Shown here in pieces: positions 342-20,940 of a stretch of DNA of 64,000 nucleotides. Within the stretch, counting starts at the first letter, position 1; every line of letters starts with the position of its first letter. The DNA is from Alphaproteobacteria bacterium (GTDB lineage Bacteria > Pseudomonadota > Alphaproteobacteria > JANSWW01): NCBI GenBank assembly GCA_024743275.1, contig JANSWW010000003.1, forward strand, positions 156,521-220,520, given 5' to 3'. The notes under the pieces are model-generated. The model was given only the letters and a program-made list of their open reading frames with translations, was not told where the DNA came from and ran no database searches. Made by a program: the position numbers and the translations under genes.

Positions 342-1913
342 CTAAATGTTCGAGTCCGGGAAGGCGGCCTTGCGGCGGGCCATGAAGTCGAGCAGTTGCT
401 CGTCCACACCCGGATCGATCGGCGGCGCCTCATAGGCGGCGAGCTTCGCCTTCACCACATTGGCGGCGTGCTGATAGGTGTCGATGGAGCCTTCCGCCTG
501 CCATTGCTCGAAGGTCGCGTTGTTGGCGATCTCGGAGCGGAAGAACGCGGTCTCGAAATTCCGCTGGGTGTGGTTGCAGCCGAGGAAATGGCCGCCGGGG
601 CCGACCTCCTTCAGGGCGTCCATGGCCTGGCCGTTCTCCGACATGTCCACGCCCGCCGTCATGGTGTGCATCATGGCGAGCTGGTCGGCGTCCATCACCA
701 GCTTTTCATAGGAGGAGGCGAGCCCGCCCTCCAGCCAGCCGGCGGCGTGCAGCACGAAATTGACCCCGCCGAGGACGGTCGGCAGCAGGGTGTTGGCGCT
801 CTCATAGGCGGCCTGGGCGTCGGGGATCTTGGAGCCGCACAGCGACCCGCCGGAGCGGAAGGGCACGCCGAGGCGCCGGGCCAGTTCCGCCATCCCGTAG
901 AGCACCATGGCCGGTTCCGGCGTGCCGAAGGTCGGCGCGCCCGACTGCATGGAGATCGAGCTGGCGAAGGAGCCGAACACCACCGGCGCGCCCTTGCGGA
1001 CGAGCTGGGCGAAGGCGATGCCGGTCATCGCCTCGGCGAGGGTCTGGGCCATGGTCCCCGCGACCGTCACCGGCGACATGGCGCCCGACAGGATGAAGGG
1101 GGTGATGATGACGGCCTGATTGTTGCGGGCGAAGACCTTGAGGGCGCCGAGCATGGTGGCGTCCCAGGTCAGCGGCGAGTTGGCGTTGATCAGGCTGATC
1201 ATCACCGTGTTCCGGTCGACGAATTCCTCGCCGAACAGGATCTTCGCCATATCGACGGAATCCTGCGCCCGGTCCGGATGGGTCACCGAGCCCATGAACG
1301 GCTTGTCGCTATGCCGCATATGGGCATAGAGCATGTCGAAGTGGCGCTTGTTGACCGGCAGGTCGACCGGCTCGCAGACCGTGCCGCCGGAGTGGTGCAG
1401 GGCCGGCGACATATAGGTGAGCTTCACGAAATTGCGGAAGTCCTCGATGGTCGCGTAGCGGCGGCCGCCCTCATAGTCGCGCACGAAGGGCGGACCGTAG
1501 ACCGGGGCGAAGACCGTCGCGTTTCCGCCGATCTCGACATTGTTCTGCGCGTTGCGGGCGTGCTGGGTAAAGGTCGACGGCGCCGTCTTGCACAATTCGC
1601 GGGCCATGCCCTTGGGCATCCGCACCCGTTCGCCGTCGACGTCGGCCCCGGCATCCTTCCAGATCTGGATGGCCTCCGGATCGTCGCGGAATTCGACCCC
1701 GATCTCCTGTAGGATGATATCGGCGTTCTCCTCGATCCGGACCAGCGCCTCCTCGCTCATCACCTGATAGGGCGGGATATTGCGGTTGATATAGTGGAGC
1801 TGACGGACGGCCTTGGTCTCGCGCGCGGCCCGGCGGGCCTCCCGGCCCCCACCACCCCGGCCCCGGCGCGCCGCCCGGCCGCCCTGGCCTTCCGTGTTCT
1901 CGATATCCGCCAT
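342..1913 (-). CDS. Trimethylamine methyltransferase (MttB) family protein, non-pyrrolysine type
   Basis: C-terminal 523 aa of the 904-aa ORF, start re-set to ATG 1913 (MADIENT...). Family motifs: Arg/Gly-rich N-terminus, GGTVCEPVD, INANSPL, GAMSPVT, GAPTFGTPE, HAAGWLEGG. No in-frame TAG. Confidence 0.9.
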   Translation of the reverse strand: MADIENTEGQGGRAARRGRGGGGREARRAARETKAVRQLHYINRNIPPYQVMSEEALVRIEENADIILQEIGVEFRDDPEAIQIWKDAGADVDGERVRMPKGMARELCKTAPSTFTQHARNAQNNVEIGGNATVFAPVYGPPFVRDYEGGRRYATIEDFRNFVKLTYMSPALHHSGGTVCEPVDLPVNKRHFDMLYAHMRHSDKPFMGSVTHPDRAQDSVDMAKILFGEEFVDRNTVMISLINANSPLTWDATMLGALKVFARNNQAVIITPFILSGAMSPVTVAGTMAQTLAEAMTGIAFAQLVRKGAPVVFGSFASSISMQSGAPTFGTPEPAMVLYGMAELARRLGVPFRSGGSLCGSKIPDAQAAYESANTLLPTVLGGVNFVLHAAGWLEGGLASSYEKLVMDADQLAMMHTMTAGVDMSENGQAMDALKEVGPGGHFLGCNHTQRNFETAFFRSEIANNATFEQWQAEGSIDTYQHAANVVKAKLAAYEAPPIDPGVDEQLLDFMARRKAAFPDSNI

Positions 1914-2108
1914 CGTCAGATACTCCCAGAATTGCGCGCCTGTGCGCACGAGGTTCGACCCGTTCGAATTGTTTCCGTTATGTGATCCGGGCGGGGGGCG
2001 GCGGCGCGTTCCAAGGCGACAGCGGCTATTCCCTTTCCGCCACCGGATGCTATCCCCTCTCCGGATGTATCCGCTAGACCGAATCCCACCCGTCGTCAGG
2101 GGACAATT

Positions 2109-3149
2109 GTGACGCCCGATCTCGCCCTGGAGGCGCTCAGCCACCTCTTCGACCGCGACCCCGCCTTGCAAAGCCGCAGGGAGACGGGGGGATTTTTGAT
2201 TCGGCCCACCGCCCTGCCGCGGGGCTTCCGCGGTTTCATCGCCGAACAGACCTTTCGGCCCGCCGCCGACCGGCTCAAGGCGTCGGGTCTCAGGGTGACA
2301 CGGCGCGTCTCCGGCCGGCATGCGACCGGGGTCGTGCTGGCGACCCAGCATAAGGAGGAGACGCTGGCCAACATCGCTCGGGCGTGGGGCCATCTGGAGC
2401 CGGGCGGCCTGCTGGTCTTTGCCGGTGAGAACGGCATGGGGGGCAAGAGCCTCGGCAAGCAGGTGGCCGTGGCCCTGAACGGGGCGCTGAATGGGGCCCT
2501 GAACGGGGCGCGCCGGGAGAGCCTGCGCAAATCGACCGTTCTGCTCGCCGCGAAGTCTGGGGAGGCGCCACCGGCCTTCGAGGCCTGGCTTGAGCAGGAC
2601 CAATTGGCGGTCCGGATCGAGCATCGATTCGCGACCCGGCCCGGCATGTTCTCCTGGAAGGCCGCGGATAAGGGCTCGGTCCTGTTGCGTCGTCATCTGC
2701 CGGACCGGTTTTCGGGGCGGATCGCCGATCTCGGCGCCGGCTGGGGGTATCTCGCGGTCCATCTCGCCGACCGGGCGGAGCCGGGCACTTGCGTCGATCT
2801 CTATGAGGCGGAGTTGCGGGCTCTGCAGGCCGCCCGGCTCAACCTTGCCGATGCCGGTCCCGAGATCGCCTGCCGTTATCGCTGGGTCGACGTCACGCGC
2901 CGGGCGCTGCCGAGACGGGCCTACGACCTGGTCGTCACCAATCCGCCCTTCCATGAAGGGCAGAGCGCCGATCCCGGGATCGGCCGCGAATTCCTGACCC
3001 GGGCCGCCGAGATGCTGAAGCCCGGCGGGACTCTGCTCGCGGTCGCCAATCGCCATCTACCCTACGAGGCGACGCTCGACCGGGCGTTCCGACGGTGGGA
3101 GACGATCGCGGACGAGGGCGGGTTCAAGGTGTTTTCCGCCATGCGTTGA
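2109..3149 (+). CDS. Class I SAM-dependent methyltransferase, RsmC/MTS-like
   Basis: PGMFSW..AD.GS, IADLGAGWGYL (SAM-binding), VTNPPFH, and VANRHLPYE...GGFKV C-terminus typical of RsmC. Confidence 0.85.
   Translation: MTPDLALEALSHLFDRDPALQSRRETGGFLIRPTALPRGFRGFIAEQTFRPAADRLKASGLRVTRRVSGRHATGVVLATQHKEETLANIARAWGHLEPGGLLVFAGENGMGGKSLGKQVAVALNGALNGALNGARRESLRKSTVLLAAKSGEAPPAFEAWLEQDQLAVRIEHRFATRPGMFSWKAADKGSVLLRRHLPDRFSGRIADLGAGWGYLAVHLADRAEPGTCVDLYEAELRALQAARLNLADAGPEIACRYRWVDVTRRALPRRAYDLVVTNPPFHEGQSADPGIGREFLTRAAEMLKPGGTLLAVANRHLPYEATLDRAFRRWETIADEGGFKVFSAMR
2472..2510 (+). repeat. 12-nt tandem repeat x3 (ALNG) inside the methyltransferase
   Basis: gccctgaacggg / gcgctgaatggg / gccctgaacggg / gcg. 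Confidence 0.85.
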
Positions 3150-3524: not shown

Positions 3525-5483
3525 TCACATTGTCTCGAACGGCGGCGCTTCCACGGTACCCAGGGTATCGACGAACGGTAGGCCCGGGATGCCGGGGATT
3601 TCCGGAAAGCTGGGGATCGTCGGGATGTCGAAAGTTCCCGGCAGATTGTTGAGCAAGGTCTGCAGCGCGGTGAAATCGAGGGTTCTGAGCGCACCGGTGA
3701 AGAAGGAGACGTCACCCGTCATGGCGTAATCCAGGACGGCGGCCTCGAAGGCCGGGGTTCCCGTCTCGAACCCGATGTTGGTGGCCAGGCTCTGAGCGGT
3801 CTGCACCAACTGCGGGTCGAGCTGGTCGGTGGAGGCGGGCGTCGCGGGGAAGCTCTTATCCGTGAAGCTGTCGGTGGTTTGGCCGCTCTCATAGTCGAAC
3901 AGGGATTCCGCCTGGGTGATCCGCCAGCTATCGGCCAGGGTCCGGTGGATCTGCTCGAAACTCGCCGTGCTGCCCAAATTCGTCCCGTCGCTCAAGGATA
4001 GATCGTTGCCCGGATCGCCGTCCTTGTTCCCCAGAAGACCCGTGACGCTTCCCGAGGCCCGGCTGTCCGCCAGCGTGATGTCGACGTCGAAGAAGGCGCC
4101 AAATTGCGGACCCGGCCCGTTGTTGGCGATGATCATCTTGTCGCCCGTTGCGAAGAACAGGGTGTATTCGTTGCTCTGCCGGGTGACGGCGCCGGTGCCA
4201 ACCTGTTGGGTGGCACCATCGGCCAGTTCGACCGTCGCGCCATCCACCTTCAGGGTGAGAGTCTCGCCCGCCGTGAAGGAGACCCGGGCCGATCCGACTC
4301 GGGTCGCGATCGCCGTGGTGAGCGAGATCGAGGTGCCCTCCACCGGCTCGTAGCGGACCTGGATTTCGAAGCCGTCCGAGGCGGCGGTCACCAGCTTGAA
4401 CTCCCCGACCGCCATGAAGTCGTAGGCCAGTCCGTCGAAGCTGACGAGATGGGGGTCGCCATGGCTTTGGCCCCGGTCGCCCTGATCCGGGTCGGAGAGC
4501 AGGCGGGGTGGGGCGATATCGGGTAGGCCCGCCATAGGCAGCCCCGCGGTCGGGAAGCTGTCCCGCAGCTGATTGAAGAAAGCCAGACTATCGGTCGCAA
4601 TGTCCGGGTTCGCCGCCGTGAAGGCGTTCTCGTCGAAGAACTGCCTGTTCTCCGCCTGGCCGAAAGCCTGAAAGTGCTCGGCCGCCTGCTGCACGTTGAA
4701 GCCCGCGCTCAAAAGATCGGGGTTCCGCATCAGATATCCCGCCGCGTCGAAGCCGGGCAGGCGCCCCTCGTCGCGGCCGAAGTTGACGAAGTGCTCTCCG
4801 GCCTGCGCTTCGGTGAGGCCGGCGGCGATCAGGTCCGGATTGGCGGCGAGATAGGCGTCGGCGCTGAGCGGACGGCTCTCCGCCTGTCCGAAAAGTTTGA
4901 AATGCTCCAGCGCCTGGGCCTCGGTCAGGCCGGCGGCCGTGAGGTCGGGGTTGACCGCGAGATAGGCGGCAGCGTCGAAGTCGAGCATCCGATCCTCGTT
5001 GCGGCCGAAGTTGAGGAAATGGCTGAGGGCGCTCTCGGTTGTCAGGCCGGCCGCCGCAAGATCGGGATTGGCGGTGAGATAGGATTCCGCATCGAAATTG
5101 AACGCGTCGTTCTCAGTGATCGTCCCTTTGGCGCTCAGGCTCATCCTGCCGTCCGGAAAGGCGGCGTTCACCGGGTTGAACAGGCCGACCAGGAAGGTCT
5201 CGTCCGGTTCGATCGAGATGTCGGGGGTGATGGCGACCTCGATCGTTTTCGTGGTCTCGCCCGGTGCGAAGGTCAGCGTCCCCGGCGTGGCCGTATAGTC
5301 CGTGCCATTGGTCGCGAGATCATCGAAGAAGCGGTAGTCCATGGTCACCGCTTCCTCGGGCGCGCGGTCCAGGCTTACCGTAAAGGTTGCGGTCCGGCCG
5401 ACGGCATCGGTTTCCGTAACCGTGGCGTCGGAGATCGAGACGGTGGGGGTGGTTGGAGTTTCCGTCGCGCGCGGGTTGGTCAT
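3525..5483 (-). CDS. Calx-beta + YLxxNPD repeats + VWD-domain protein (probable surface/extracellular protein)
   Basis: Calx-beta pattern (VSISDATVTE...ATFTVSL...DY....GTLTFAPGETTKTIEV...EPDETF); about 4.5 copies of FDAxxYLxxNPDLxxAG...HFxxFGxxExR; VWD start HGDPHLVSFDGLAYDF and GLLGNKDG. Confidence 0.8.
   Translation of the reverse strand: MTNPRATETPTTPTVSISDATVTETDAVGRTATFTVSLDRAPEEAVTMDYRFFDDLATNGTDYTATPGTLTFAPGETTKTIEVAITPDISIEPDETFLVGLFNPVNAAFPDGRMSLSAKGTITENDAFNFDAESYLTANPDLAAAGLTTESALSHFLNFGRNEDRMLDFDAAAYLAVNPDLTAAGLTEAQALEHFKLFGQAESRPLSADAYLAANPDLIAAGLTEAQAGEHFVNFGRDEGRLPGFDAAGYLMRNPDLLSAGFNVQQAAEHFQAFGQAENRQFFDENAFTAANPDIATDSLAFFNQLRDSFPTAGLPMAGLPDIAPPRLLSDPDQGDRGQSHGDPHLVSFDGLAYDFMAVGEFKLVTAASDGFEIQVRYEPVEGTSISLTTAIATRVGSARVSFTAGETLTLKVDGATVELADGATQQVGTGAVTRQSNEYTLFFATGDKMIIANNGPGPQFGAFFDVDITLADSRASGSVTGLLGNKDGDPGNDLSLSDGTNLGSTASFEQIHRTLADSWRITQAESLFDYESGQTTDSFTDKSFPATPASTDQLDPQLVQTAQSLATNIGFETGTPAFEAAVLDYAMTGDVSFFTGALRTLDFTALQTLLNNLPGTFDIPTIPSFPEIPGIPGLPFVDTLGTVEAPPFETM
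4596..5096 (-). repeat. Intragenic ~38-aa repeats (4 full + 1 partial)
   Basis: FDAESYLTANPDL / FDAAAYLAVNPDL / LSADAYLAANPDL / FDAAGYLMRNPDL / FDENAFTAANPDI. Confidence 0.9.
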
Positions 5484-10297: not shown

Positions 10298-11326
10298 CTA
10301 GCCTTGCTGTGCCACCCCGCCGCGGTTGACGGTATAGGCGATGAGGTCCGCCATCAGCCCTCTGACCGGCGTCTCGGGGACGGTTTCCAGGCATTCCGCC
10401 CCCTCGCGGGCATAGCGCCGAGCATCGCCATAGGTCTCGAAGAAGCTTGCGGACCCGATCACCTCCTCGATGGCCTTGGCGATCGCGGCCTCCCCGTCCA
10501 ACTCGCCGCGTATGACGCGTGCGATGTGGCTTTCCGGGCCCCGTTCCTCCATCGCCTTGATGATCGGCAGAGTGAGCCGCCGCATCCGCACATCGGCCCC
10601 CGGTTCCTTGCCCTCGCTGACGCTGTTGACCGTGAAATCGGCGAGGTCGTCCATGATTTGAAAGGCGCGGCCGAGCAGCCGGCCATAGCGGCCCAGCCTC
10701 ATGACATGCCGCTTGCGGCCCCGCATCAGGGCCGCGCCGGATTCGCAGGCGAGTTGAAAGAGGACCGATGTCTTGCGGTCGATGGTCTTGATATAGCGGT
10801 TCTTGAGCCGTGTCGGGGACCAGGTCGGATCGGTGGTCAGTTCGTCGATCTCGCCGCAGCAGATGCGCGATCCGGCGTCCAACACCATTTCGACCAGGTA
10901 CATGTCCTCCTGGGCATCGATGGCGCCGGCGAAGCACTTCACGGCGTTGACGAATTGCAGATCGCCGACCAGCAGGGCGATGTCCGGACCCCGTGCGGCG
11001 TTGACCGACGGCAGGCCCCGGCGCTTCGGGGCCCGGTCGACGATGTCGTCGTGGATCAGGGTCGCGACATGGAGCATCTCCAGCGAGGCGGCCGCCTTGT
11101 AGACCCTGCTCGGCATCGGCTCGGTTGCCGGCAGCGTCGAGACGGCCCGTGCGGCCATCAGCAACAGCAGCGGCCTTAGTTTCTTGCCGCGATTGTAAAG
11201 CTCGTATTCGACATCCGAGAGATAGTCCCGCATCGGTTCGATGGCCGCCGTCAGCGCCGCCCTGAACAGGGTCAGGTCGTCGGCGAGCAGGACATGGGCG
11301 TCGTCCAGCGGGCTCGGCTTATTCAT
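10298..11326 (-). CDS. trans-polyprenyl diphosphate synthase (long-chain type)
   Basis: GKKLRP, first Asp-rich motif HVATLIHDDIVD...RRG, KT, second Asp-rich motif AFQIMDDLAD, GK..G.D. Overlaps the upstream gene by 8 nt (ATGAATAA). Confidence 0.92.
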   Translation of the reverse strand: MNKPSPLDDAHVLLADDLTLFRAALTAAIEPMRDYLSDVEYELYNRGKKLRPLLLLMAARAVSTLPATEPMPSRVYKAAASLEMLHVATLIHDDIVDRAPKRRGLPSVNAARGPDIALLVGDLQFVNAVKCFAGAIDAQEDMYLVEMVLDAGSRICCGEIDELTTDPTWSPTRLKNRYIKTIDRKTSVLFQLACESGAALMRGRKRHVMRLGRYGRLLGRAFQIMDDLADFTVNSVSEGKEPGADVRMRRLTLPIIKAMEERGPESHIARVIRGELDGEAAIAKAIEEVIGSASFFETYGDARRYAREGAECLETVPETPVRGLMADLIAYTVNRGGVAQQG

Positions 11327-14300
11327 TCTTGAGGCTGTCCATCAGCGCTTCCCGGGACAGGCGTCGGTAGCGGCTCAGCACCGGAATCGCGACCCGTATC
11401 TGCTCGCGCAGGCCCGGACTCGCCCGATGGGCGACGGCGATAAGCGCCAGGATGCTCGTCTGCAGGACCAATTGCAGGTCGCGCCCGCCCTCCGGCGACC
11501 GTTCCAGGGCTGCGAGCCGCGCCCGTATGGTCGGATGATGGGCGAGCAGGCGCCAGATCTCGTCGCCATAGCCGTAGCGAAGATAGAGCAGTTGCCGGCC
11601 TTCCTCGGTCCCGGTCAGCATGAACCGCATGTCCCGGAGTGAGGGGTGGTCGGCCCCGGTTTCAGAGGCCGCCGCATTAGCCGAGGCCATGGCGCAATCC
11701 TGCACCAGGTCCTCGACGATGGTGACCGCCTCGTCATAGGTCTTGTGGAAGAAGCTCGTGAGCGCGCTGACGATCTGATCGAATTCGGCGCCGATATCCT
11801 TCAGATACTGGGCCGCGTCCTCGGCGCCCGTCTCGAAGTAGTTGGCAAGCGCGTTGGCGACATTGTCGATGTCGTCGGCAAGCTCGCCCAGGGCGTTCTT
11901 GATCGCGTCGATCCACTTCGAGACATCGCTCAGGATGTCCGCGAATACCTTCTTCACGTTGTTCTCGAGCCAGGAGAGGATCGCCGAGCCGAGCTTCGAG
12001 AGGTCGCTGGCGATATCGCCCAGGTCCAGGGTGAAGTGCAGATCGAACTTCGGCAGGCCGCCCCACTCGAAGGTGAGATGCATGGAAAGCGACACGTCGC
12101 TGCCGACGGTGATGGAGGCCCCGAGATCGGCTTTCGGTCCGTCGATATGGACTTTCGGGATCAGCGTGATGCCATCGACCTTCAATGGCCCCAGGGTGAC
12201 GTCAAGGTTGAAGTCGATATCGGCGCCGGCGGTGAAGTTCTTGTCGTCGATCAGGTGGCAGTTGAGGGTGTAGCCGTAGATGTCGAGGAACTTGGTCTCG
12301 ATGTCGAAGTCGAAGCTGGATTTGGCCGCCTTGGCGTTGACCGATTCGGTCAGGCCCAGAACCTCGACCTTGCCGTCCAGGGTGAAATAGGGCGGCGACC
12401 CGTCGGCCGCCCAGCTTTCGAGCGTCAGAAGCGGGGTGCCGTTGGCCAACGCAATGCGGTTGGCCCGCTGGAGGGCCGCCAGTTGGGTTGTGTCGATGGA
12501 CCCGCTCGGCCCCTTGCTGGCGTCGTCCGCCGCAGACAGGGTGAAGACGTCGAGCAGGGTGATCGGCTTGCTGATGCTGCCGCTGGCGATGATCCCCTTG
12601 GAGAACTCGACCTCGATGTTGAAGTCCGCCTCCCAGGAGAAGATATCGATGTCGGCGATGATCCCGATACCTTGCGGAAAGGTGGCGCTCTTGCCGTCGG
12701 TGGTGACCGTGGCGCCGGCCGGATCGGCGACGACCCAGAACGCGATTTCCTTGAAGCCGATATCGTCGAGGATCGGCACGTCGCTGAGATCGAGATCGGT
12801 GAAGGTGGAGATCAGATCGCCGAGGGTCAGCTCCTGCCCCTGGCCGTCCTTGAGTTCGAACAGGAAGAAATCCGGCTCCTCGAAGTCGACGATGCTGCCG
12901 GCGATTTCGAAGATGATCGAATCTCCGTTGTGGCCGACCTCGAACTGGCCCTCCAGCATAATGGTCAGCCCGATCTCGTCGACCGTGATGCCGAGTCCGA
13001 AGGAATCGATCGTCAGGCCGGTGATGCCGAACGGGTCTTTCCAATGCTCGATCTGGATGGTCACGGTCAGTTTCGGCGCAGGTCCGACGGTGATCGTGCC
13101 GTCGCCCTCGAGCCCGATGCTCTCACCATGGACGTTGAGGGTCGCCTGAATGTCGATGGTGGCGGTGATCGGCGGCCCTTCCTGGATGGTTAGGCCGAGC
13201 TCCTTGAAGGCGAGCGCGTTGGTCGACGGGCTGCCGGGCAGGGTCGCCTTGAATTCGGACTTCGACGGATCGCCCTCGTCGATGACCAGCAGAAGGTCCA
13301 GCTTGATGTCGTCGTTGAACAGCTTCGAGACCGGGCCGACGATGTCGCCGGTGAGCTCCAGGGAGGCGAAGAAGGTGAACCCCTCGTCGACGCTGGCCGG
13401 CAGGGCCGGCAGTTTGATGTCCGGCAGATTGACGCTGTTGCTGCCCTTCATGGTCGAGACGATGACGCCTTCGTCGTCGATGGTGATGTCGTTCAGGATC
13501 CCGTTCAGTCCCGACCAGAGGTCGCCCGGCGACCACTTCTCCGTCACCACCAGGCCGGTGATGACGCCATAGGTTCCCTGGGCCTTGCGGAGATCGAAAT
13601 AGGCCGCGCCCACGGTGGTTTCGTTGACCGCGGCGGAGCCCGAGAAGGAGAACTCGTAAAGCTCGCTGGTCGTGTTCAGCGTGATCGCCACATCGATGTT
13701 GTCGAAGGTGACGGTCACGCCGCTGATGATCTGGGTATGGGTGATTTCCTGGGCGAGCTTGCCGAGGTCCAGCTTTTCGATGTTGCCCTTGAGCTGGAAG
13801 TCGCCCGGGAGGGTCCAACGCGTCGAGAAGGTGGCGTCCCCCGCACCGCCACCGAGATCCAGATCGCCGTTCGCCCCGATCGTGCCGCTGGTCTTCGACG
13901 ATTCGTAGTCGAGCGACAGGTAGGCCTCGGTCAGGGTGAGGGTCGTGAACCCGATCGGGACCGACCAGTCGCCGGTGAGGCCGGTGGTGAGCTGAAAGCT
14001 CTTCGGATCCGTCTGTCCGCCGAAATTCAGTTCGTTGAGGACAAGCGTCGTCCCGTCGAGGCCGAAGGAGGGAATGAAGTTTTGGACGAACGGCACCAGG
14101 TCGATCGTCGTCCCCTCGACCAGTCCGCCGGACACGCTGAACTTCGGGGCGGTGGCCGACAGGGCGATGTCGCCCCCGCCGACCTCGAACAGGCCGTCGA
14201 GTGTGGCGATGACCGAGGACTTCTCCACATTCACCGTGAAGACGATGTCGATCTGGTCGATGGTGATCTGGCTGTAGACCGGCCAGGGGGCGGTGGTGCC

Positions 14301-15260
14301 GAGATCGATCGCCACCGTGGTTATCTTCTTTGTCTTTGGCATCAACAGGAAGGTCAGGGACTTGAGCGCGAAGTTGCTGCCCGGATCGAACCCGTCCGAC
14401 GGCAAACTGCCGGCGAAATCGATGCCCGGCAGCATCGTGGCGAAATCGGAGAAGGCGACCTCGGAGAGCTGGGTCGTGTTGGCCGTGATCGGCACGCCGC
14501 CGGAGGGGGCGGTGATGTCCATCGTGATCGGAAGCTGCACCCCGGCCAGCGGGATCGTCGAAGCGAGATCGAGGGATGTCTTGGGGCTGTAATAGGGGGA
14601 CGCCGCCTGGCTGCCGCCACTTACCGAAAGCGGCTGAGGCGTCGTCAGGACCGGTTTGCAGGCCACGACCAAGTCGAGGGCGAGTTTGCCCAGCACCGGC
14701 AGGGTCTGTTCGGCCAAGGTCAGGGACAGGCTGAAATCCGGAACCGCATGGCTTTGGCCGATCGCCCCGGCCATCGAGGCGACGCCGTTGTCGCCAAGGA
14801 GCCACAGAATGGTCTGCCAGTCGTCGGACAGCGTGAGGTCGCCCTTGAAATTGAGCCCTTTCTTGAGGCTCCCCGCCGCGACGGAGGTGAGGGTGAGCGT
14901 GCCGTTGGCCACGGTGATCTTGCTGATCCAGAGATTCGCCAGGACCGGCCAGCCGGTGGCGAAGGTCCAGTCGGACGCCAGGGTGGCGGTCAGGGTCAGC
15001 ACGGTGTCCTGCCCTGACGGGCTGAAATCCGCATCGACGGTGAGGCCGGCGAGCGGGGCGCCGCTGCAGGTCGCGCCCTTGATCGTGACCGCCTCGCCGT
15101 CTTTGGTCAGGGTCACACCGGTGAGATCGAGTTGCCCATTCGCGAAATAGGTCGTGAGAACGTCCTGGATGCCGCCGCTGCCGAAAGCGTTGGCGGGCAA
15201 GGTCAGGGTCGTTCCCGAAAGATGGGTGTTCAGCGTGTCGTAGATGCTGGTCGAGGCCAT
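11319..15260 (-). CDS. 1313-aa hypothetical protein: long beta-rich body, amphipathic helices, CFI-box-CTERM-like tail
   Basis: GAGGAG RBS; long ORF with strong GC3 codon bias; T/S/G/D-rich alternating hydrophobic strands; no signal peptide. Confidence 0.88.
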   Translation of the reverse strand: MASTSIYDTLNTHLSGTTLTLPANAFGSGGIQDVLTTYFANGQLDLTGVTLTKDGEAVTIKGATCSGAPLAGLTVDADFSPSGQDTVLTLTATLASDWTFATGWPVLANLWISKITVANGTLTLTSVAAGSLKKGLNFKGDLTLSDDWQTILWLLGDNGVASMAGAIGQSHAVPDFSLSLTLAEQTLPVLGKLALDLVVACKPVLTTPQPLSVSGGSQAASPYYSPKTSLDLASTIPLAGVQLPITMDITAPSGGVPITANTTQLSEVAFSDFATMLPGIDFAGSLPSDGFDPGSNFALKSLTFLLMPKTKKITTVAIDLGTTAPWPVYSQITIDQIDIVFTVNVEKSSVIATLDGLFEVGGGDIALSATAPKFSVSGGLVEGTTIDLVPFVQNFIPSFGLDGTTLVLNELNFGGQTDPKSFQLTTGLTGDWSVPIGFTTLTLTEAYLSLDYESSKTSGTIGANGDLDLGGGAGDATFSTRWTLPGDFQLKGNIEKLDLGKLAQEITHTQIISGVTVTFDNIDVAITLNTTSELYEFSFSGSAAVNETTVGAAYFDLRKAQGTYGVITGLVVTEKWSPGDLWSGLNGILNDITIDDEGVIVSTMKGSNSVNLPDIKLPALPASVDEGFTFFASLELTGDIVGPVSKLFNDDIKLDLLLVIDEGDPSKSEFKATLPGSPSTNALAFKELGLTIQEGPPITATIDIQATLNVHGESIGLEGDGTITVGPAPKLTVTIQIEHWKDPFGITGLTIDSFGLGITVDEIGLTIMLEGQFEVGHNGDSIIFEIAGSIVDFEEPDFFLFELKDGQGQELTLGDLISTFTDLDLSDVPILDDIGFKEIAFWVVADPAGATVTTDGKSATFPQGIGIIADIDIFSWEADFNIEVEFSKGIIASGSISKPITLLDVFTLSAADDASKGPSGSIDTTQLAALQRANRIALANGTPLLTLESWAADGSPPYFTLDGKVEVLGLTESVNAKAAKSSFDFDIETKFLDIYGYTLNCHLIDDKNFTAGADIDFNLDVTLGPLKVDGITLIPKVHIDGPKADLGASITVGSDVSLSMHLTFEWGGLPKFDLHFTLDLGDIASDLSKLGSAILSWLENNVKKVFADILSDVSKWIDAIKNALGELADDIDNVANALANYFETGAEDAAQYLKDIGAEFDQIVSALTSFFHKTYDEAVTIVEDLVQDCAMASANAAASETGADHPSLRDMRFMLTGTEEGRQLLYLRYGYGDEIWRLLAHHPTIRARLAALERSPEGGRDLQLVLQTSILALIAVAHRASPGLREQIRVAIPVLSRYRRLSREALMDSLKNE

Positions 15261-15276
15261 GGTCCGGCTCCTCGTT

Positions 15277-16341
15277 CTAAAGATCGATCGAGAGATGGAG
15301 CGGGTAGTGGTCGCTGATGCCGTAGCGGACGATCAGCCAGGCCCATATCGCCTCGTCGAGACATTGATTGAGCGGGTCGGGGAAACAATCCGCGTTGGGG
15401 AAGGCCCGGTTGCCGTCGCCGTCGACGAGGTCGAAATTCTGAACGATGCCCCGGACCAGCGAATCGGAATCCATCACCTTGGCGACGAGATCGATCACCG
15501 TGCCCGCGGCGTTGTCGGGATTGATCGTCGAGGCGTAGAAGATGTTGTCGAGTTGCAAGTTGAGATAGGACGCCGCGTCCGTGGGCCAGGTGTCCGAGTT
15601 ATCGCCCCATTTCCTCCGGCCGTCCTGGAGCGACACGATATGGGTGTCGTCGGTCGTCATCGCGGTCGTGCCGGCGCCGTGCTGATCGTCGGCCGGGGGC
15701 GCCGGCGGGTTCTCGGCCGCGTCAGTCAGCCATTGATAGGGGCCGGTCTCGCTGTTGACGTCGAGATTGTAGTCTCCGCACAGCAGCCGCTCGTAGACGG
15801 CCTGGTTCGCGCCCGCATTGTCCACCGCATAGATTTCCGGCGTCATCGCCAGGCTTTGCAGGCCGTTGCGGGCAAAGGTGTTCGGCGGGGCGTGATAGAC
15901 CGACACGGCGAAATTGTTGTTGGTGTCCGTTGTGCGGAACCCCATGACCGCCGCGCGGCGGCCGTTGCTGTTGAACCAGTTACAGGGGAACTCGACGGTG
16001 GACAGGCCCGCGTTGAGATTGTTGTGGCCATCGAGAACCGGGGCGAAGGCGCCGCCGGTCCGGTAGATGATGCCATAGCTCTCCCGGTCGCCCTGGGGAC
16101 GGGCCTGGACGACATAGTATCGCCAGTCCTCCTCGGTGTATTCGGCCAGGGCCTCGCAGACGCTGTAGCAGACCGCCTCGGCGGTGGAACTGCTCAACTC
16201 CATCAGCGCCAGGATGTCGGCCCCCGCCTGCACGCCGACGATGGCGATCAGACGGACGAGCCGGTAATTGTTGACCGAGTTCCCGTATTTCTGTGGTCCG
16301 AAGACCTCGATGTTCCAGGAGAGGATGTTGATCGTCGCCAT
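15277..16341 (-). CDS. Exonuclease/endonuclease/phosphatase (EEP) family protein
   Basis: ILSWNIE, DILALMEL, VYHAP, LCGDYN, LDNIF and ISDHYPL make up the full DNase I-like catalytic set. Confidence 0.88.
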   Translation of the reverse strand: MATINILSWNIEVFGPQKYGNSVNNYRLVRLIAIVGVQAGADILALMELSSSTAEAVCYSVCEALAEYTEEDWRYYVVQARPQGDRESYGIIYRTGGAFAPVLDGHNNLNAGLSTVEFPCNWFNSNGRRAAVMGFRTTDTNNNFAVSVYHAPPNTFARNGLQSLAMTPEIYAVDNAGANQAVYERLLCGDYNLDVNSETGPYQWLTDAAENPPAPPADDQHGAGTTAMTTDDTHIVSLQDGRRKWGDNSDTWPTDAASYLNLQLDNIFYASTINPDNAAGTVIDLVAKVMDSDSLVRGIVQNFDLVDGDGNRAFPNADCFPDPLNQCLDEAIWAWLIVRYGISDHYPLHLSIDL

Positions 16342-16359
16342 CGGCCCGTCCCCCGCGGC

Positions 16360-17661
16360 TCAGCTCGAGATCGTGACGTTGCCGACCACGCCGAGATAAC
16401 CGCCGACATTGGTCTTTCCGAGACCGGTCGGCGTCATGGTGATGTTCTTGCCGTCGATCGAGACCGTCGCCGTCGGGATGTCGAAGCTGTCGACGTTGAT
16501 GCCCTTGAGGAAGCCGGTGACCAGCGGGGTCAGGCTGGTGACCACGCCGTCGATGATGGCGGAGATCAGCCAGCCCACGACCTTGGCCGGGATCGAGCCC
16601 GTGGGGCTGACGACGATGGTGAACGGATTGACGCTGGCGGTGACCAGATTGACCTTGCTGCCGCTGATCTGCAGGTCGATGACGACCGACGGATCGGGGG
16701 TGGCGTGGGCGTTGAAGCCGAGCCCGATCGGCACGAACACGATCTTCACCCCGGCGGAGACGTCCCCGTTCAAGGTGAAGGTCCCGGCGACATCCGTGCC
16801 CTGGATCGATGTGTGGGGGTTGGTGAGCGACAGCCCGTAGCCCCAATGATAGCCGGCCCAGTCGTCGCCGCCACTGCCGTGATCGCTGAACTTGTTGGTC
16901 GCCGAGGCGAGCGCGACCTCGACCTGGGCCTGGATCATGTTCGGCCCCAGCAGGGCGAAGAAGTTGTCCGACGGCCAGGGGAAGGTGCCGTCCGGCGGCG
17001 GCGGCGTGCCGGCGGCGGCGAGGTTGCTCGCCAGAATGACGGAATCATTGACGATCCCGACCGACGGGGTGGCGATCGAGACGCTGCCGACCGAGATCGG
17101 CGGCAGATCGGTGCTGGAGAAGATGCTCTGCAGGGCGGTCTTCAAGGCCGGGTCGACCACATGGGTCACCAGATATTGCTGCACCGGATCCTGCTGCGGC
17201 GCGGCGCTGACCGACATAACGGTGAAGGTCAGCTTGTCGCCGGAGATTTCGGCCGTGCACTGCGCGGAAAACGGCAGTTTGAGCGTGGTCGTCGGCGCCC
17301 CTTTGGAGGACAGGGTGATATCGACCTCGGAGAAGCTCACCGTGAAGCTGGGCGTTTCCGCCGCCAGAAGCGGGATCGCCCGCTTCAATTCGACCGCCTT
17401 CGGATCGTCCGCCGACATCGGCATGGCGAGCGAGTCGTTGAGCCGGTCGGTCAAAAGGTCGGTGACCGCGTCGGCGGAGGCGGGTTTGGAGAGATCGAAG
17501 GTCGGCGCCGCTTTGACGTCCCAGGCGACCGTGTAGTCCACGCTCTTATAGGACGAGTCCTGCGTGCCTTTGAACGGACCCGGATAGATCGCGGCGTAGA
17601 CCGCCTTGCTGCCCGCGTCGAGCTGGGCCTGATTGATGCCGAGGGCGATATCGAAAGACAT
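16360..17661 (-). CDS. Hypothetical protein, putative two-domain BPI/P47-like (TULIP) fold
   Basis: GGGGGAG RBS; two similar halves, each with strand-helix start, beta meander, long amphipathic helix and a (L/I)P...hairpin end. The fold call is inference. Confidence 0.8.
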   Translation of the reverse strand: MSFDIALGINQAQLDAGSKAVYAAIYPGPFKGTQDSSYKSVDYTVAWDVKAAPTFDLSKPASADAVTDLLTDRLNDSLAMPMSADDPKAVELKRAIPLLAAETPSFTVSFSEVDITLSSKGAPTTTLKLPFSAQCTAEISGDKLTFTVMSVSAAPQQDPVQQYLVTHVVDPALKTALQSIFSSTDLPPISVGSVSIATPSVGIVNDSVILASNLAAAGTPPPPDGTFPWPSDNFFALLGPNMIQAQVEVALASATNKFSDHGSGGDDWAGYHWGYGLSLTNPHTSIQGTDVAGTFTLNGDVSAGVKIVFVPIGLGFNAHATPDPSVVIDLQISGSKVNLVTASVNPFTIVVSPTGSIPAKVVGWLISAIIDGVVTSLTPLVTGFLKGINVDSFDIPTATVSIDGKNITMTPTGLGKTNVGGYLGVVGNVTISS

Positions 17662-17728
17662 GACTGTTGCTCCCCCTGGCGCCGGGGCGCCCGGCGCGAT
17701 GGTTGATGGATGGACGCCCGGCGGCGGG

Positions 17729-19081
17729 TCAGGTCAACGAGGCCAGGGCCTTGTTGATGATCGTCGAGAGCTGATTGCGGACATTCTCAGCGCCCAGCGA
17801 GTTGTTCACCTGGGTCCCGAGGGTCGACTGGAACCAATCCGCGTCGTTCAACTCGCTCTGGACGTCCGACGTGAAGCTCGGGTCGGAGCCGTTTAGAAGG
17901 TTGATCTTGATGTTCGGGATGTCCGCCGAAAGCTTGGTGACGTCGACGGTGAGCGTCTCGTTCGGCGGCGTCCCGGTGATCGTGACGGTGCCGGTAAAGG
18001 TGATCGTCGGCGAGGTGAAGGTGAAATCGAAGTTGCCGGTGCTGGTATATGTCGTGATCTGATCGACCTTGGCCTGTTCCTTCTCGGCGGCCTGGGCGGC
18101 CCATTTGGGATAGTCCCGTTCGGCGGCCTCCCGTGCCTCGCGCGCCCAGTCCGGCTCCTCGATCGGTTCGGCGAGGGAGGCGCCGTTGGGGTTGGTGTTC
18201 GAGACGGTCGTCATCACCGACCCGACGGTCCGCTGATAGGCCTGCGGCAGGGCATGACCCTTGAACCCCAGGATCGCCTCTTTCAGGTTGCTGAACGGAT
18301 CGTCCTGCGCCTCCTCGGCGCTGATCCCGTTCGGAATGCGGTTGATGGTCTCCTTGTAGAACATCGTCTGCATGTAGATGGCGTGGCTGTTGTAGTTGGT
18401 ATCGCCGACGGTGAAGCTGTTATTGTCCGGGTTGGAGGCGGCGGCATTGGTCACGGCCATGTAATAGGAGGTCTTCTGTCCGGCCGTCGGATAGTTCTTC
18501 CACGCCTCGGTGAACGAGTTGGTGCCCGACGTGATCTGATACATCGGGTCGTTGTTGTCGTAGTAGGTGGCGACGAGGGACGGACCGCCACCGCCTCCCG
18601 ACATCAGATTTCCGCGATATTGCGTGGCGAGCGTCATGTTGTCGCCGCTGGACGCCGCCGCCAGTTCCGGCGGGATCGGTTGCGGGTTGGCGTTCGCCTC
18701 CGCCTCGTCCATGGCGCAGCCGGTGAGGCCCTTGCCGTCCGCCTCGAAGTTGCCTTTGAAGTCGAGGGATTGGAAGACGACCTCGATGGTCACGGAACTG
18801 GCGTCGTCGGCCGGGGTGAAGCTCTTCTTCTGGATCGAGGGCAGCCCGCTCAACACCAGCGAGGTCAGGGAGATATCGACATCGCCCCAGGTGCTCGATT
18901 TGTAGATCGGGATATTCTTGATGTCGGACAGTGTCGTCGACTGCATCGGCTCGATCTTGTCGCCTCCGATGGTGCCGCCGTTCTTCAGAAGACTCGGCAG
19001 ATAGTATTGGGAGCTGGAGTCCCAGATGAGGTTCCAGGCTTGCTTGAGGATCGCGACATTCGGGTTTCCGTTGGTTTCCAT
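17729..19081 (-). CDS. Hypothetical protein, putative TULIP (Takeout/JHBP-like) domain with large internal insertion
   Basis: GGAG/GAGG RBS; shares SSxYY[LM]PxxxKN, LxxxxxSGL and the C-terminal QLSxIxxKALA helix with the upstream gene. Confidence 0.82.
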   Translation of the reverse strand: METNGNPNVAILKQAWNLIWDSSSQYYLPSLLKNGGTIGGDKIEPMQSTTLSDIKNIPIYKSSTWGDVDISLTSLVLSGLPSIQKKSFTPADDASSVTIEVVFQSLDFKGNFEADGKGLTGCAMDEAEANANPQPIPPELAAASSGDNMTLATQYRGNLMSGGGGGPSLVATYYDNNDPMYQITSGTNSFTEAWKNYPTAGQKTSYYMAVTNAAASNPDNNSFTVGDTNYNSHAIYMQTMFYKETINRIPNGISAEEAQDDPFSNLKEAILGFKGHALPQAYQRTVGSVMTTVSNTNPNGASLAEPIEEPDWAREAREAAERDYPKWAAQAAEKEQAKVDQITTYTSTGNFDFTFTSPTITFTGTVTITGTPPNETLTVDVTKLSADIPNIKINLLNGSDPSFTSDVQSELNDADWFQSTLGTQVNNSLGAENVRNQLSTIINKALASLT

Positions 19082-19168
19082 GACCTCTACTCCAGCATCG
19101 ATTGTTGAAAGAAAGGGCGGCGCCCCGCCGTTGCCTTTCGGGTGCCTTTCCGGGGGCGCCGGCCGAAA

Positions 19169-20719
19169 TCAGGTCTCCTTCTCGGCGGCCGCCTGTTCGG
19201 CGAGCACGTTGGCGAGCGCCTTGGTGACGATCTTGCTGAGCTGATCGAGGATCGACTGGCTGTTGATCTCTGCCTGCAGCCGCTGCAGCACCACCGTCGT
19301 GGCCTGGGTCGTGTTCAGGGTGTTGTCGATGTACTCGTTCCAGCTATCCCGGCCCTTGTCCTTGGGGATGCTGGTCGCGTCGACCTTGAAGACGATGTTC
19401 TTCGCGTCCGTCACATTGGGGTCGCTCTGGATCCGCAGGCCCTTGACCGTCCCGGTCAGATTGTCGTGGCTGTCGGTGCCGATGGCGATGAAGGCCCCCA
19501 GGGCCGCCGCCTTGATGGTCGCGGTGAAGGTCCCGGTGCCGGTCTGCGGCTGGGACGCGCCGGAGCAGGTCTGGAAATTCGTCGTCGGGCAGCAGCTCAG
19601 CTTCAAGGTGAAGGTGCCGCTCAGTTCGAACTGATACTGCCAACTCGGCACCTGGCCGACGATGGCGAGCCCCGTCACATTGTCGCCGATCACCATAAGC
19701 GGCTGCGGCAGCGCGTTCGACAGGCCTGAAATGACGATGTTCTCAAGGGTCAAGGGGGCTGGCGCGCCCGGGGTTCCGATCCACGATTCCGAGCCGGGCG
19801 CGGAGGCGCCGCAGATCGAGCTGACGGCCGACGAGGCGAAATCGCCGATGCTGCCGATGGACCAGCTCGAATTCGTCGTCGTGTACGGCTCCAGCGTCGG
19901 GTCGGACGCATTCTTGATCACCGTCGGCATGTAGTAGTCGCTCGACGCATTGGTCGCCATTTTGTAGAGCAGCGACACGGTAAAGCTGAGCAGCGACGGT
20001 TTGGCGACCGACTGGACATAGGCCGTCAGCCCCTTGTTGAGGGCCGATGTCACGCTTGACTGAGCCAGGCATTTGTTGATGACGGTCGAGAAGACCCCCG
20101 GATTGGCCGCGAGCGCACTGCCGAGATCGTTGGCGATCTTCACCTGGGCGGTCGGGTCCGCCGGCTGTTCCAGCGTGAAGGTGTGGGTGGTCAGGCTGCC
20201 GACCGCGCAGGTCAGCGATGTGACGGAAACGTTGTAACTCCCGTCCACCGTTGCCTTCAGGGTCAGGACGGCTCCGCCGAGGCCCATCGTGAAGGTGCCG
20301 CTGATCGTCTCCGCTTTTCCGCAGTCGATGGCGATGGAGAAGGAGCCGGTGATGGTCGGCTGTTCGAGGACGAGACCGGTTGGTACGCTGGCGCCGCCGA
20401 GGGTGACCGTCATACTGACGTCGTTGCCGCTGACCGATTGATTGCCGAGCACACCGTTGGCCAGACCGGAAACCGAGACGTTGGTGAGCGTCATCGTCGC
20501 GCTGGTCGCCGTCCCGCCGCCCATGTCGGTGCAAAGGGTTTGCGCCAGGGTGCCGCTGATCTGGCTCAGATCGCCGAAATCCACGGTGCCGGAGACGGCC
20601 AAGGGGTCGAGGACGGGAAGCGGTTGGGCGAGAACCAGGACGGGATAGAAGAGCGCGCTCGTCTCGTCATTTCCTTTGGTGACGATCGTATCGATCACAT
20701 CGGAAAGGCTCTGGGTCAT
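19169..20719 (-). CDS. Hypothetical protein (516 aa), two tandem putative TULIP (Takeout/JHBP-like) domains
   Basis: Start re-set to ATG 20719 (MTQSLSD; RBS GGGGAG). Internal duplication: LDPL...LTNVSVSGLAN...ITGSF...GTFT versus LEPY...LENIVISGLSN...LSGTF...GTFT. Confidence 0.82.
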   Translation of the reverse strand: MTQSLSDVIDTIVTKGNDETSALFYPVLVLAQPLPVLDPLAVSGTVDFGDLSQISGTLAQTLCTDMGGGTATSATMTLTNVSVSGLANGVLGNQSVSGNDVSMTVTLGGASVPTGLVLEQPTITGSFSIAIDCGKAETISGTFTMGLGGAVLTLKATVDGSYNVSVTSLTCAVGSLTTHTFTLEQPADPTAQVKIANDLGSALAANPGVFSTVINKCLAQSSVTSALNKGLTAYVQSVAKPSLLSFTVSLLYKMATNASSDYYMPTVIKNASDPTLEPYTTTNSSWSIGSIGDFASSAVSSICGASAPGSESWIGTPGAPAPLTLENIVISGLSNALPQPLMVIGDNVTGLAIVGQVPSWQYQFELSGTFTLKLSCCPTTNFQTCSGASQPQTGTGTFTATIKAAALGAFIAIGTDSHDNLTGTVKGLRIQSDPNVTDAKNIVFKVDATSIPKDKGRDSWNEYIDNTLNTTQATTVVLQRLQAEINSQSILDQLSKIVTKALANVLAEQAAAEKET

Positions 20720-20940
20720 GGCGCGTCTCCCCTGATTTTGCTGTTTTGTGAAGTGTTTAGGGTCTTTTTCTGCGTTCTTAGGCGGCAAAAAATACCTTCA
20801 CAGCAATCAAAAATAGCAACAGCCTGAATAATATCGCAATCCTTTAATCACAAAGGATCGATAAAATTTCGTGATAAAATTGTTTCAATCAGATTGTATC
20901 GTGCATTAGCGGATTTTAAGGGAGGTTCCGAAAATCCATG
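20720..20940 (-). promoter_or_regulatory. AT-rich promoter region of the six-gene operon with GATAAAATT direct repeat
   Basis: Clearly AT-rich relative to the flanks; GATAAAATT at 20860-20868 and 20873-20881. Confidence 0.5.

Follow-up and report, generated by a model that had tools for sequence, protein, structure and literature searches.

In a window of 64,000 nucleotides (the whole stretch of DNA that was analysed, from contig JANSWW010000003.1 of an alphaproteobacterium of the lineage JANSWW01), six genes placed head to tail encode two proteins, the giant protein P0001 and the 450-aa protein P0002, that very probably carry copies of one small module opened by a Cys residue. With less certainty, this module is probably a remote relative of the CFI-box-CTERM domain. 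The same operon encodes a polyprenyl diphosphate synthase (P0003), and we propose a mechanism in which the Cys would act as a reactive handle on the two proteins. Taken as a whole, that is, the shared CFI-like module, the operon and the mechanism together, this interpretation comes close to an even chance without reaching it. An earlier sequence-only reading had described the two segments as divergent copies of the CFI-box-CTERM putative sorting domain, one C-terminal and one internal, and had suggested protein prenylation or lipid anchoring at the Cys. The genes and the two modules are the following:

19169-20788, minus strand: P0006, first gene of the six-gene run (10298-20788)
17729-19081, minus strand: P0002, 450 aa
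18512-18721, minus strand: internal module of P0002, residues 121-190 (G-C122-A-M-D, a variable linker and NMTLATQYRGNLMSGGGGGPSLVATYYDNND)
16360-17661, minus strand: P0005, 433 aa
15277-16341, minus strand: P0004, 354 aa
11319-15260, minus strand: giant protein P0001, 1313 aa
11322-11696, minus strand: C-terminal module of P0001 (Cys1189 box, linker, SLRDMRFMLTGTEEGRQLLYLRYGYGDEIWRLLAHHPTIRARL and a helical bundle up to the stop codon)
10298-11326, minus strand: P0003, 342 aa, polyprenyl diphosphate synthase

The peptides quoted in the sequence-only reading were exact, and so were the codons given for the two residues: Cys1189 of P0001, the Cys in QDCAMASANAAAS, corresponds to 11694-11696, and Cys122 of P0002, in TGCAMDEAEA, to 18716-18718. 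In the giant protein, Cys1189 opens a C-A-M-A-S-A box, followed by a linker modelled with low confidence and then by SLRDMRFMLTGTEEGRQLLYLRYGYGDEIWRLLAHHPTIRARL. The change of composition pointed out at this position proved to be even sharper than described. Residues 1-1188 are acidic, rich in T, S and G and nearly free of Arg, with a helical stretch preceding the Cys; they contain only 4 Arg (0.3%), compared with 16 in the 124 residues after it (12.9%), and the net charge goes from -96 to +3. The switch in Arg content had the same direction in all five of the other giants tested. P0007 is a full-length homologue of P0001 (43% identity) and was the sole homologue found in the word index; further giants are P0013, P0015, P0018, P0022 and one encoded in G442, a complete genome of the same class. 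In addition, a profile of the giant C-terminus (HMMER, 1.84 billion representatives) recovered 13 proteins with E<=0.001, P0001 included. An AlphaFold2 (AF2) model of the last 175 aa of the giant, made with 13 rows, had a mean predicted local distance difference test (pLDDT) of 86.3. It presents three helices, with the Cys located just past the third one, a stretch with pLDDT below 50 at fragment residues 52-62 and, from residue 71 on, an all-helical bundle modelled with confidence (block means 82-98).

In P0002, the corresponding segment is internal. The secondary structure of an AF2 model (pLDDT 51, 4 rows) shows beta-rich ends around a helical insertion at about residues 121-342, which starts at the Cys, the sole one of the protein, and the second half of P0006 aligns weakly, in the same order, with the two ends (hhalign P of 0.0016 and 0.0054). 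The word insertion should be taken as tentative, since it comes from this low-confidence model and these weak collinear matches only. Within the family of P0002 (9 members), 11 of the 23 invariant columns are located in residues 123-177 and, therefore, the module is the most conserved part of the family. Upstream of it, residues 54-119 matched the JHBP family PF06585 with an E of 1.7e-5 and 24.5 bits, below the cut-off of 29.2, and JHBP matches were present in two of the nine members. Three homologues of P0002 had been found in the word index.

To compare both segments with the CFI-box domain, a set was assembled by a scan for the degenerate motif CFIATAAYG, found at 121 loci or more, from which 101 complete C-terminal domains were translated. 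In early hhalign runs against this alignment, the giant C-terminus (2 rows) had a P of 3.1e-5 and the P0002 insert (4 rows) a P of 2.2e-5, and none of 150 column shuffles of these alignments reached the observed score for either module. With more homologues, the giant C-terminus (14 rows) reached a probability of 80% and a P of 1.4e-5, and the insert of the P0002 family (8 rows) 86% and 4.7e-6; over all runs, the values were 73-86% with P from 3e-5 to 5e-6 for the former, and 76-88% with P from 2e-5 to 2.9e-6 for the latter. As a control, 100-column windows were slid along six operon family alignments, which gave 65 windows. Four module windows scored 34.1, 33.0, 32.5 and 22.8, and all the others scored at most 14.3 with probabilities of 1.2% or less. 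When the two modules were aligned to each other with hhalign, Cys fell on Cys (probability 62%, P 7.6e-5).

The features that link the modules to the CFI-box domain are a helical motif and, less certainly, a Cys box. In the CFI-box, the latter is CFIATAAYGS, and the putative counterpart in the operon modules is C-A-M-x-[NT]-A..AY; about 5-30 residues further on, the CFI-box has LRxFRDxxL...G..FV..YY..SPPIA..I..H..LR, and both operon modules align there. The aligned core comprises some 40-55 columns and, in the giant family, it reaches the AYGS positions of the box and not the Cys itself. The spacing in P0007 between YY, the next helix and the H..LR motif agrees with that of the CFI-box, and the two families have their Cys box at a similar distance upstream. 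From these comparisons, a consensus may be proposed that consists of C, a small residue, M/I/V, .. A .. AY, a flexible linker and L[RA]x[FY]Rxx L ... G..[LV][LV]..YY. Both segments would then be copies of one small soluble module, a variant of the CFI-box domain in which the transmembrane tail is missing and which occurs once at a C-terminus (P0001) and once within a protein (P0002, residues 121-190). That both segments form one shared module which resembles the CFI-box, as the earlier reading had suspected, was thus sustained by the profile-profile comparison, the shuffles and the window control.

Several results weigh against the relationship with the CFI-box. The curated NCBIfam model NF041770.1 (CFI_box_CTERM; 69 positions, cut-off 40 bits) gave 89-114 bits with four real CFI-box members, and had no match with E<=10 in P0001 or P0002, either whole or as excised segments. 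In a scan of the whole genome with this model nothing was above the cut-off, and the sole match with E<=10 (12.7 bits) was located on another contig. Neither operon protein is, by the curated criterion, a member of CFI-box-CTERM, and the earlier reading of them as divergent versions of this domain is, by that criterion, not supported. Its label of sorting domain is not warranted either, because both copies lack the hydrophobic tail present in 68 of the 101 canonical sequences (19-residue hydropathy >=1.6). By hydropathy, no transmembrane-like segment was observed in the giant tails, the maximum over 19 residues after the Cys being 1.44 in P0001 and 0.51-1.61 in eight other giants. A hidden Markov model (HMM) of the 101 CFI sequences matched the six operon-type proteins tested, all at the predicted places, although weakly (Z=1): 12.1 bits for P0010 (E 8.6e-6), 11.7 for P0008, 8.6 for P0009 and 7.2 for P0007 (E from 8.6e-6 to 2.9e-4), and only 3.0 for P0001 and 2.3-2.4 for P0002. 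Among 33,724 six-frame open reading frames (ORFs) of the genome, P0001 ranked 126th and P0002 228th with this model, so that the single sequences are not above chance. The match between the two modules, upheld by the profile-profile alignment, failed in the HMM-to-sequence search, where the ranks were 963 and 1863 among the same 33,724 ORFs. Furthermore, the hhalign probabilities, which span 62-88% with none above 95%, were obtained with shallow alignments of 8-14 rows.

The searches with the giant C-terminus also counted against it, in that none gave an informative match. In the wide VIA-align search, the best Z was 7.0, over fragment residues 4-56 (a designed helical protein and RecX), and for the helical bundle Z was at most 5.6 (IL-5, ZDHHC9 and others), scores that lie within the range that the tool calls common for helical models. 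A Foldseek search of the PDB gave no match with E<=0.001, the best ESM Atlas score was 0.80, with unnamed clusters, and Pfam found nothing relevant in the excised module segments.

The miss by the curated model, the two genome ranks, the failed cross-detection and the short core are also the facts that favour chance or convergence, that is, a generic amphipathic helix-loop-helix in which C-A-M is shared by coincidence. We regard this explanation as rather unlikely: among the 65 windows only those of the modules stand out, the shuffles did not reproduce the score, and the spacings of the YY to H..LR region and of the Cys box agree. In our judgement, there is little doubt that the module is real, while its remote homology to the CFI-box is probable with a clear margin for error. 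We found no published function for the CFI-box-CTERM domain in the literature.

The conservation of the Cys, which the sequence-only reading had put forward as a check, held entirely for the giants and in part for the 450-aa proteins. The residue was kept in 13 of the 13 giant-type proteins that span the site, a count that takes in the giants of the locus L126 and of G442 and leaves out P0014, P0017 and P0021, which begin after the site. These three C-terminal-only database proteins are probably contig-edge fragments. P0017 and P0014 begin at the Met after the Cys; its use as an internal start was considered and set aside, gene calling on truncated contigs being the likelier cause. In the P0002 family, seven of the nine homologues keep the Cys, which is replaced by Ser in one of the two paralogues of locus L124 (the contig of P0007) and by Ala in the contig-edge copy of L126, and these losses count against our proposal. 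The two L124 paralogues of the 450-aa protein, one with Cys and the other with Ser in the module, are encoded at L124:9971-14382, on either side of the P0006-like gene. Two residues past the Cys, 8 of the 13 giants have M and the others I, L, V, T or a residue of Q type. C-A-M recurs in P0001, P0011, P0022 and the G442 giant (KGCAMQ), and variant boxes are CPVETAYQS in P0007 and CQTETAADLAYG in P0012. The residue before the Cys varies among the giants (D, E, H, Y, V, I or G), whereas Gly precedes Cys or Ser in seven of the eight P0002-family sequences that have either residue, the exception being that of locus L125. The canonical CFI-box sequences inspected likewise have a Gly before the Cys, and they have ahead of it a Gly-rich spacer, which the giant lacks before its Cys.

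The abrupt change of composition suggests another explanation for the conserved Cys, namely a processing site. The Cys would be the point of cleavage between an exported or assembled Arg-free body and an Arg-rich C-terminal pro-domain or chaperone domain, perhaps by an autocatalytic N-to-S acyl shift. The jump in Arg occurs exactly at the Cys and has the same direction in the other giants tested, the linker after it is predicted to be disordered, Ser is a possible alternative nucleophile, and the Gly found before Cys or Ser in most P0002-family sequences and in the canonical ones would fit such a site. The residue before the Cys is not constant in the giants, however, and a cut in P0002 would fall within its putative lipid-binding fold. 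Neither a Hint-like nor a protease fold could be detected, and the short proteins that could have been taken as released C-terminal products (P0014, P0017 and P0021) are those probably created by contig edges. On balance, we consider processing at this residue unlikely.

The synthase is the element that connects the module with isoprenoid chemistry. P0003 matched PF00348 with an E of 2.6e-51 and 174.7 bits (cut-off 27) and contains the Asp-rich motifs DDIVD and DDLAD, which are conserved in its orthologues. None of the NCBIfam equivalog cut-offs was reached; the highest score, 150.7 bits against the 456 required, was with the heptaprenyl type. P0003 resembles the long-chain synthases (IspB, HepT/GerC3) in that NCBIfam places it closest to the hepta- and nonaprenyl types, and differs from them in forming its own orthologous group tied to the operon. 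The small residues before its first DDxxD motif (A-T-L-I-H-DD) presumably indicate a medium- or long-chain product. The genome has three other PF00348 genes (IspB-like, FPPS and FPPS/CrtE-like), which makes P0003 a dedicated extra, fourth paralogue.

The ATG start of P0003 overlaps the stop of the giant gene, as had been noticed from the sequence alone; the overlap is of 8 nt, and this start/stop overlap couples both genes translationally. The link between the synthase and the gene with the module turned out to be firmer than could be known from a single locus: an orthologous synthase was present in all four loci with visible context (the window, L124, G442 and L125), the four being 41-62% identical to each other, and in three of three loci its start and the stop of the giant gene overlap. 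Since a synthase for isoprenoid lipids invariably accompanies the operon, the Cys may be a site of lipid attachment or of cross-linking.

The most direct version of this idea, already raised in the earlier reading, is that the product of the overlapping synthase is attached to the Cys, by S-prenylation or another form of lipidation; this would be a bacterial protein polyprenylation system complete in itself. In its favour are the constant presence and coupling of the synthase, the invariance of the Cys in the giants, the extra paralogue beside the IspB-like and FPPS genes, and the conservation next to it of the hydrolase P0004, which could act on the diphosphate. Several facts oppose it. CaaX prenylation requires that the Cys occupy position -4 from the C-terminus; in P0001 it lies 125 residues from the end and in P0002 it is internal, therefore neither is in the CaaX position. 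A search of the genome, which is 93% complete, for PPTA repeats found none, and for Prenyltrans there was one sub-threshold match (22.5 bits) on another contig (C5). A thioether is impossible for the Ser and Ala variants, and by the usual chain-length rule P0003 looks like a long-chain enzyme. Prenylation of the Cys is, accordingly, an improbable explanation in our estimation.

The operon modules share some traits with the CaaX box, in that the Cys is followed by small or hydrophobic residues (C-A-M-A and C-A-M-D, and C-F-I-A in the canonical CFI-box) and an isoprenoid diphosphate would be provided by a trans-prenyl synthase. They differ from it in the position of the Cys, in the lack of PPTA and in a synthase that seems to be long-chain rather than of the C15/C20 type. 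A second comparison is with Hedgehog/Hint proteins, where cholesterol is esterified. Here too there is a large N-terminal body, a Cys at the junction, a C-terminal domain of different composition and an available isoprenoid-derived lipid, and the junction is Gly-Cys in P0002-family and canonical CFI-box sequences alike. The C-terminal domain of the operon giants is, on the other hand, all-helical and not the Hint beta fold, no Hint match was obtained, and the position before their Cys varies. The third comparison is with C-terminal sorting signals. The PEP-CTERM/exosortase, PGF-CTERM/archaeosortase and LPXTG/sortase signals consist of a short motif, a transmembrane helix and a basic tail, and each needs a dedicated enzyme. 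As in these signals, the operon module has a conserved motif where a large passenger meets a C-terminal tail, with a Cys or similar residue proposed for processing or attachment. Unlike them, it is a soluble helical domain of about 125 aa without a transmembrane helix, and no sorting enzyme is encoded in the operon.

A different role for the synthase is suggested by the other proteins of the operon. Two of them give hints of the TULIP type of lipid-binding fold: P0002, by the JHBP match described above, and P0005, for which no family match was found and whose Atlas lead was a 'TULIP family P47-like' cluster (score 0.87, rank 22). PF06597 had no match with E<=10 in the own genome of P0005 or in three members of its family. 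In 5.8 billion clusters there were 12 proteins of this type, P0005 included, none of them functionally named. P0005 has a single Cys, Cys135, outside a C-A-M context, which was invariant in the three aligned homologues (one of them 27% identical). The bacterial TULIP families named in PMC6791001 include P47, OrfX2 and YceB. Like the orfX-p47 clusters, the operon would encode several TULIP-like proteins side by side; in contrast to them, no toxin gene was recognised in it. In the literature, we found nothing that joins TULIP proteins to a polyprenyl synthase operon, or a CFI-like insert in such clusters.

The module could then act without covalent chemistry, as a docking element or a lid, the Cys being structural or related to redox or metals, with the polyprenyl as a ligand in the TULIP-like cavities, in the way JHBP carries a sesquiterpenoid. 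Such loading would explain the synthase without any role of the Cys, and this counts against our proposal. It agrees with the JHBP match and the P47-like lead, with the loss of the Cys in two of nine homologues of the 450-aa protein, with the lack of a transferase in the operon and of PPTA in the genome, and with the confident fold of the giant C-terminal domain as a helical bundle. It does not account for the invariance of the Cys in the giants despite the poorly ordered segment in which it lies, nor for Cys122 being the only Cys of P0002, and the TULIP membership itself is below the Pfam cut-off, with matches in two of nine members and a poor AF2 model. Non-covalent carriage of the lipid is a serious contender, although we would not expect it to be the answer, and it is nearly as likely as the reading of the Cys as a covalent handle.

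We propose that the operon module marks two subunits of one system, the Arg-free giant at its C-terminus and the JHBP/TULIP-like protein P0002 inside its insertion. The remaining genes would encode further lipid-binder-like proteins, a hydrolase of the EEP (endonuclease/exonuclease/phosphatase) type and a polyprenyl diphosphate synthase of the long-chain type. The helical hairpin of the module may be a recognition element, and the Cys, exposed at a domain boundary, a reactive handle. By way of this residue, both subunits would undergo covalent processing or tethering, the partner being either the isoprenoid lipid of the operon or, through a disulfide, the other subunit. Two negative results count against these proposals: no transferase, sortase or protease was recognised in the operon by Pfam or NCBIfam, and no N-terminal hydrophobic signal-like stretch was seen by hydropathy in P0001, P0002, P0005 or P0006. 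That some covalent chemistry takes place at the Cys is, in our opinion, possible but doubtful; that this chemistry is the attachment of the polyprenyl made by the operon would be a distinct surprise. The most specific version is a self-contained system which attaches a long-chain polyprenyl to proteins, where the CFI-like module would be recognised, the Cys would be S-alkylated or undergo a Hedgehog-like acyl shift resolved by polyprenol, and the lipid would be provided by the synthase, with the EEP hydrolase working on the diphosphate. We give this version small weight; if it were true, the CFI-box-CTERM domains, a large and uncharacterised family, would signal lipid attachment as well.

The interest of the system resides in the fact that the CFI-box-CTERM domain is widespread, its motif CFIATAAYG being found in many phyla, and that the operon offers a soluble and genetically compact version of the module, in two partner proteins beside a dedicated isoprenoid synthase. 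With this arrangement, the role of the conserved Cys can be directly tested. Moreover, the operon joins lipid-binder-like proteins, a nearly Arg-free protein of 1,300 aa and its own polyprenyl synthase, a combination that could reveal a new coupling between isoprenoid lipids and proteins in bacteria, covalent or not.

The operon is conserved, very rare and previously undescribed. Its proteins had from 1 to about 11 homologues each in 5.8 billion protein clusters. The locus L124 contains two P0002-like genes along with P0006-like, P0005-like, EEP, giant and synthase genes in this order, with the GTG start of the synthase overlapping the stop of the giant gene. In G442, the genes are P0002-like, P0005-like, EEP, giant and synthase, the last two with a 4-nt overlap. 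The order in L125 is P0002-like, P0005-like, synthase and P0006-like; this locus has 39% GC and its P0002-like protein is only 24% identical. L126 is too short for its gene context to be judged. A search of 40 further genomes from the class of the window organism found no member of the P0002 family, and the P0005 family was present in one (G442) of 400 other genomes of this class. The latter family was also absent from 147 genomes of the order of G041, which was selected since the NCBI homologue P0025 carries the label Kofleriaceae, and from the three genomes that hold the loci L032, L005 and L064. The operon is scattered horizontally. In the window, it is flanked by unrelated genes in divergent or convergent orientation, with PAS_5 proteins upstream and a 17-kDa-antigen-like gene downstream. 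The relatives of the window organism shown among the species representatives were all at class level only, so that none of them belongs to the same order or is nearer.

Regarding the remaining operon proteins, P0004 had weak NCBIfam matches, to MnuA (E 2.3e-5, 24.5 bits) and to ExeM/NucH (E 0.003), and no Pfam match with E<=0.1. By eye, it presents an N-terminal WNIE and a C-terminal SDHYP, motifs that we take to be those of the EEP superfamily, and orthologues are encoded in L124 and G442. P0006 is rich in T, S and G and has 539 aa when read from a TTG codon; the ATG at 20719, which gives 516 aa, is the more likely start. Searches of PDB sequences with profiles of the P0005, P0002, EEP and P0006 families gave nothing better than an E of 0.026. 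The depletion of Arg extends beyond the giant, with 0.9% in P0006, 1.6% in P0002 and 0.5% in P0005, compared with a median of 9.9% for the ORFs of the genome, in which only 11 of the 2341 ORFs of at least 400 aa are below 2%. Export economy, avoidance of proteases and surface chemistry are possible causes. In the four Arg-depleted products (residues 1-1188 of P0001, P0002, P0005 and P0006), Lys is about 4%, and five other giants are depleted of Arg in the same way; the GC content of the genome is 64%.

A scan of the operon for promoters and terminators gave nothing above the shuffled expectation. In the 87-nt gap between P0006 and P0002, at 19114-19130 on the minus strand, there is a GC-rich hairpin of 5 bp, followed on the coding strand by a run of T, which could be an attenuator or a partial terminator inside the operon. 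A known defence system was considered and not adopted, since PADLOC gave weak coiled-coil-like matches alone (OloA and ZorA, E about 0.005-0.009). Elsewhere in the window, an ORF of 904 aa at 342-3056 (minus strand) has a trimethylamine methyltransferase MTTB domain in its C-terminal 500 aa (E 1.5e-237); its first 400 aa or so have no Pfam match, and its start may be over-called. Finally, the gene at 3525-5483 (minus strand) encodes a 652-aa protein that combines Calx-beta and von Willebrand factor type D domains, which is unusual for a bacterium.

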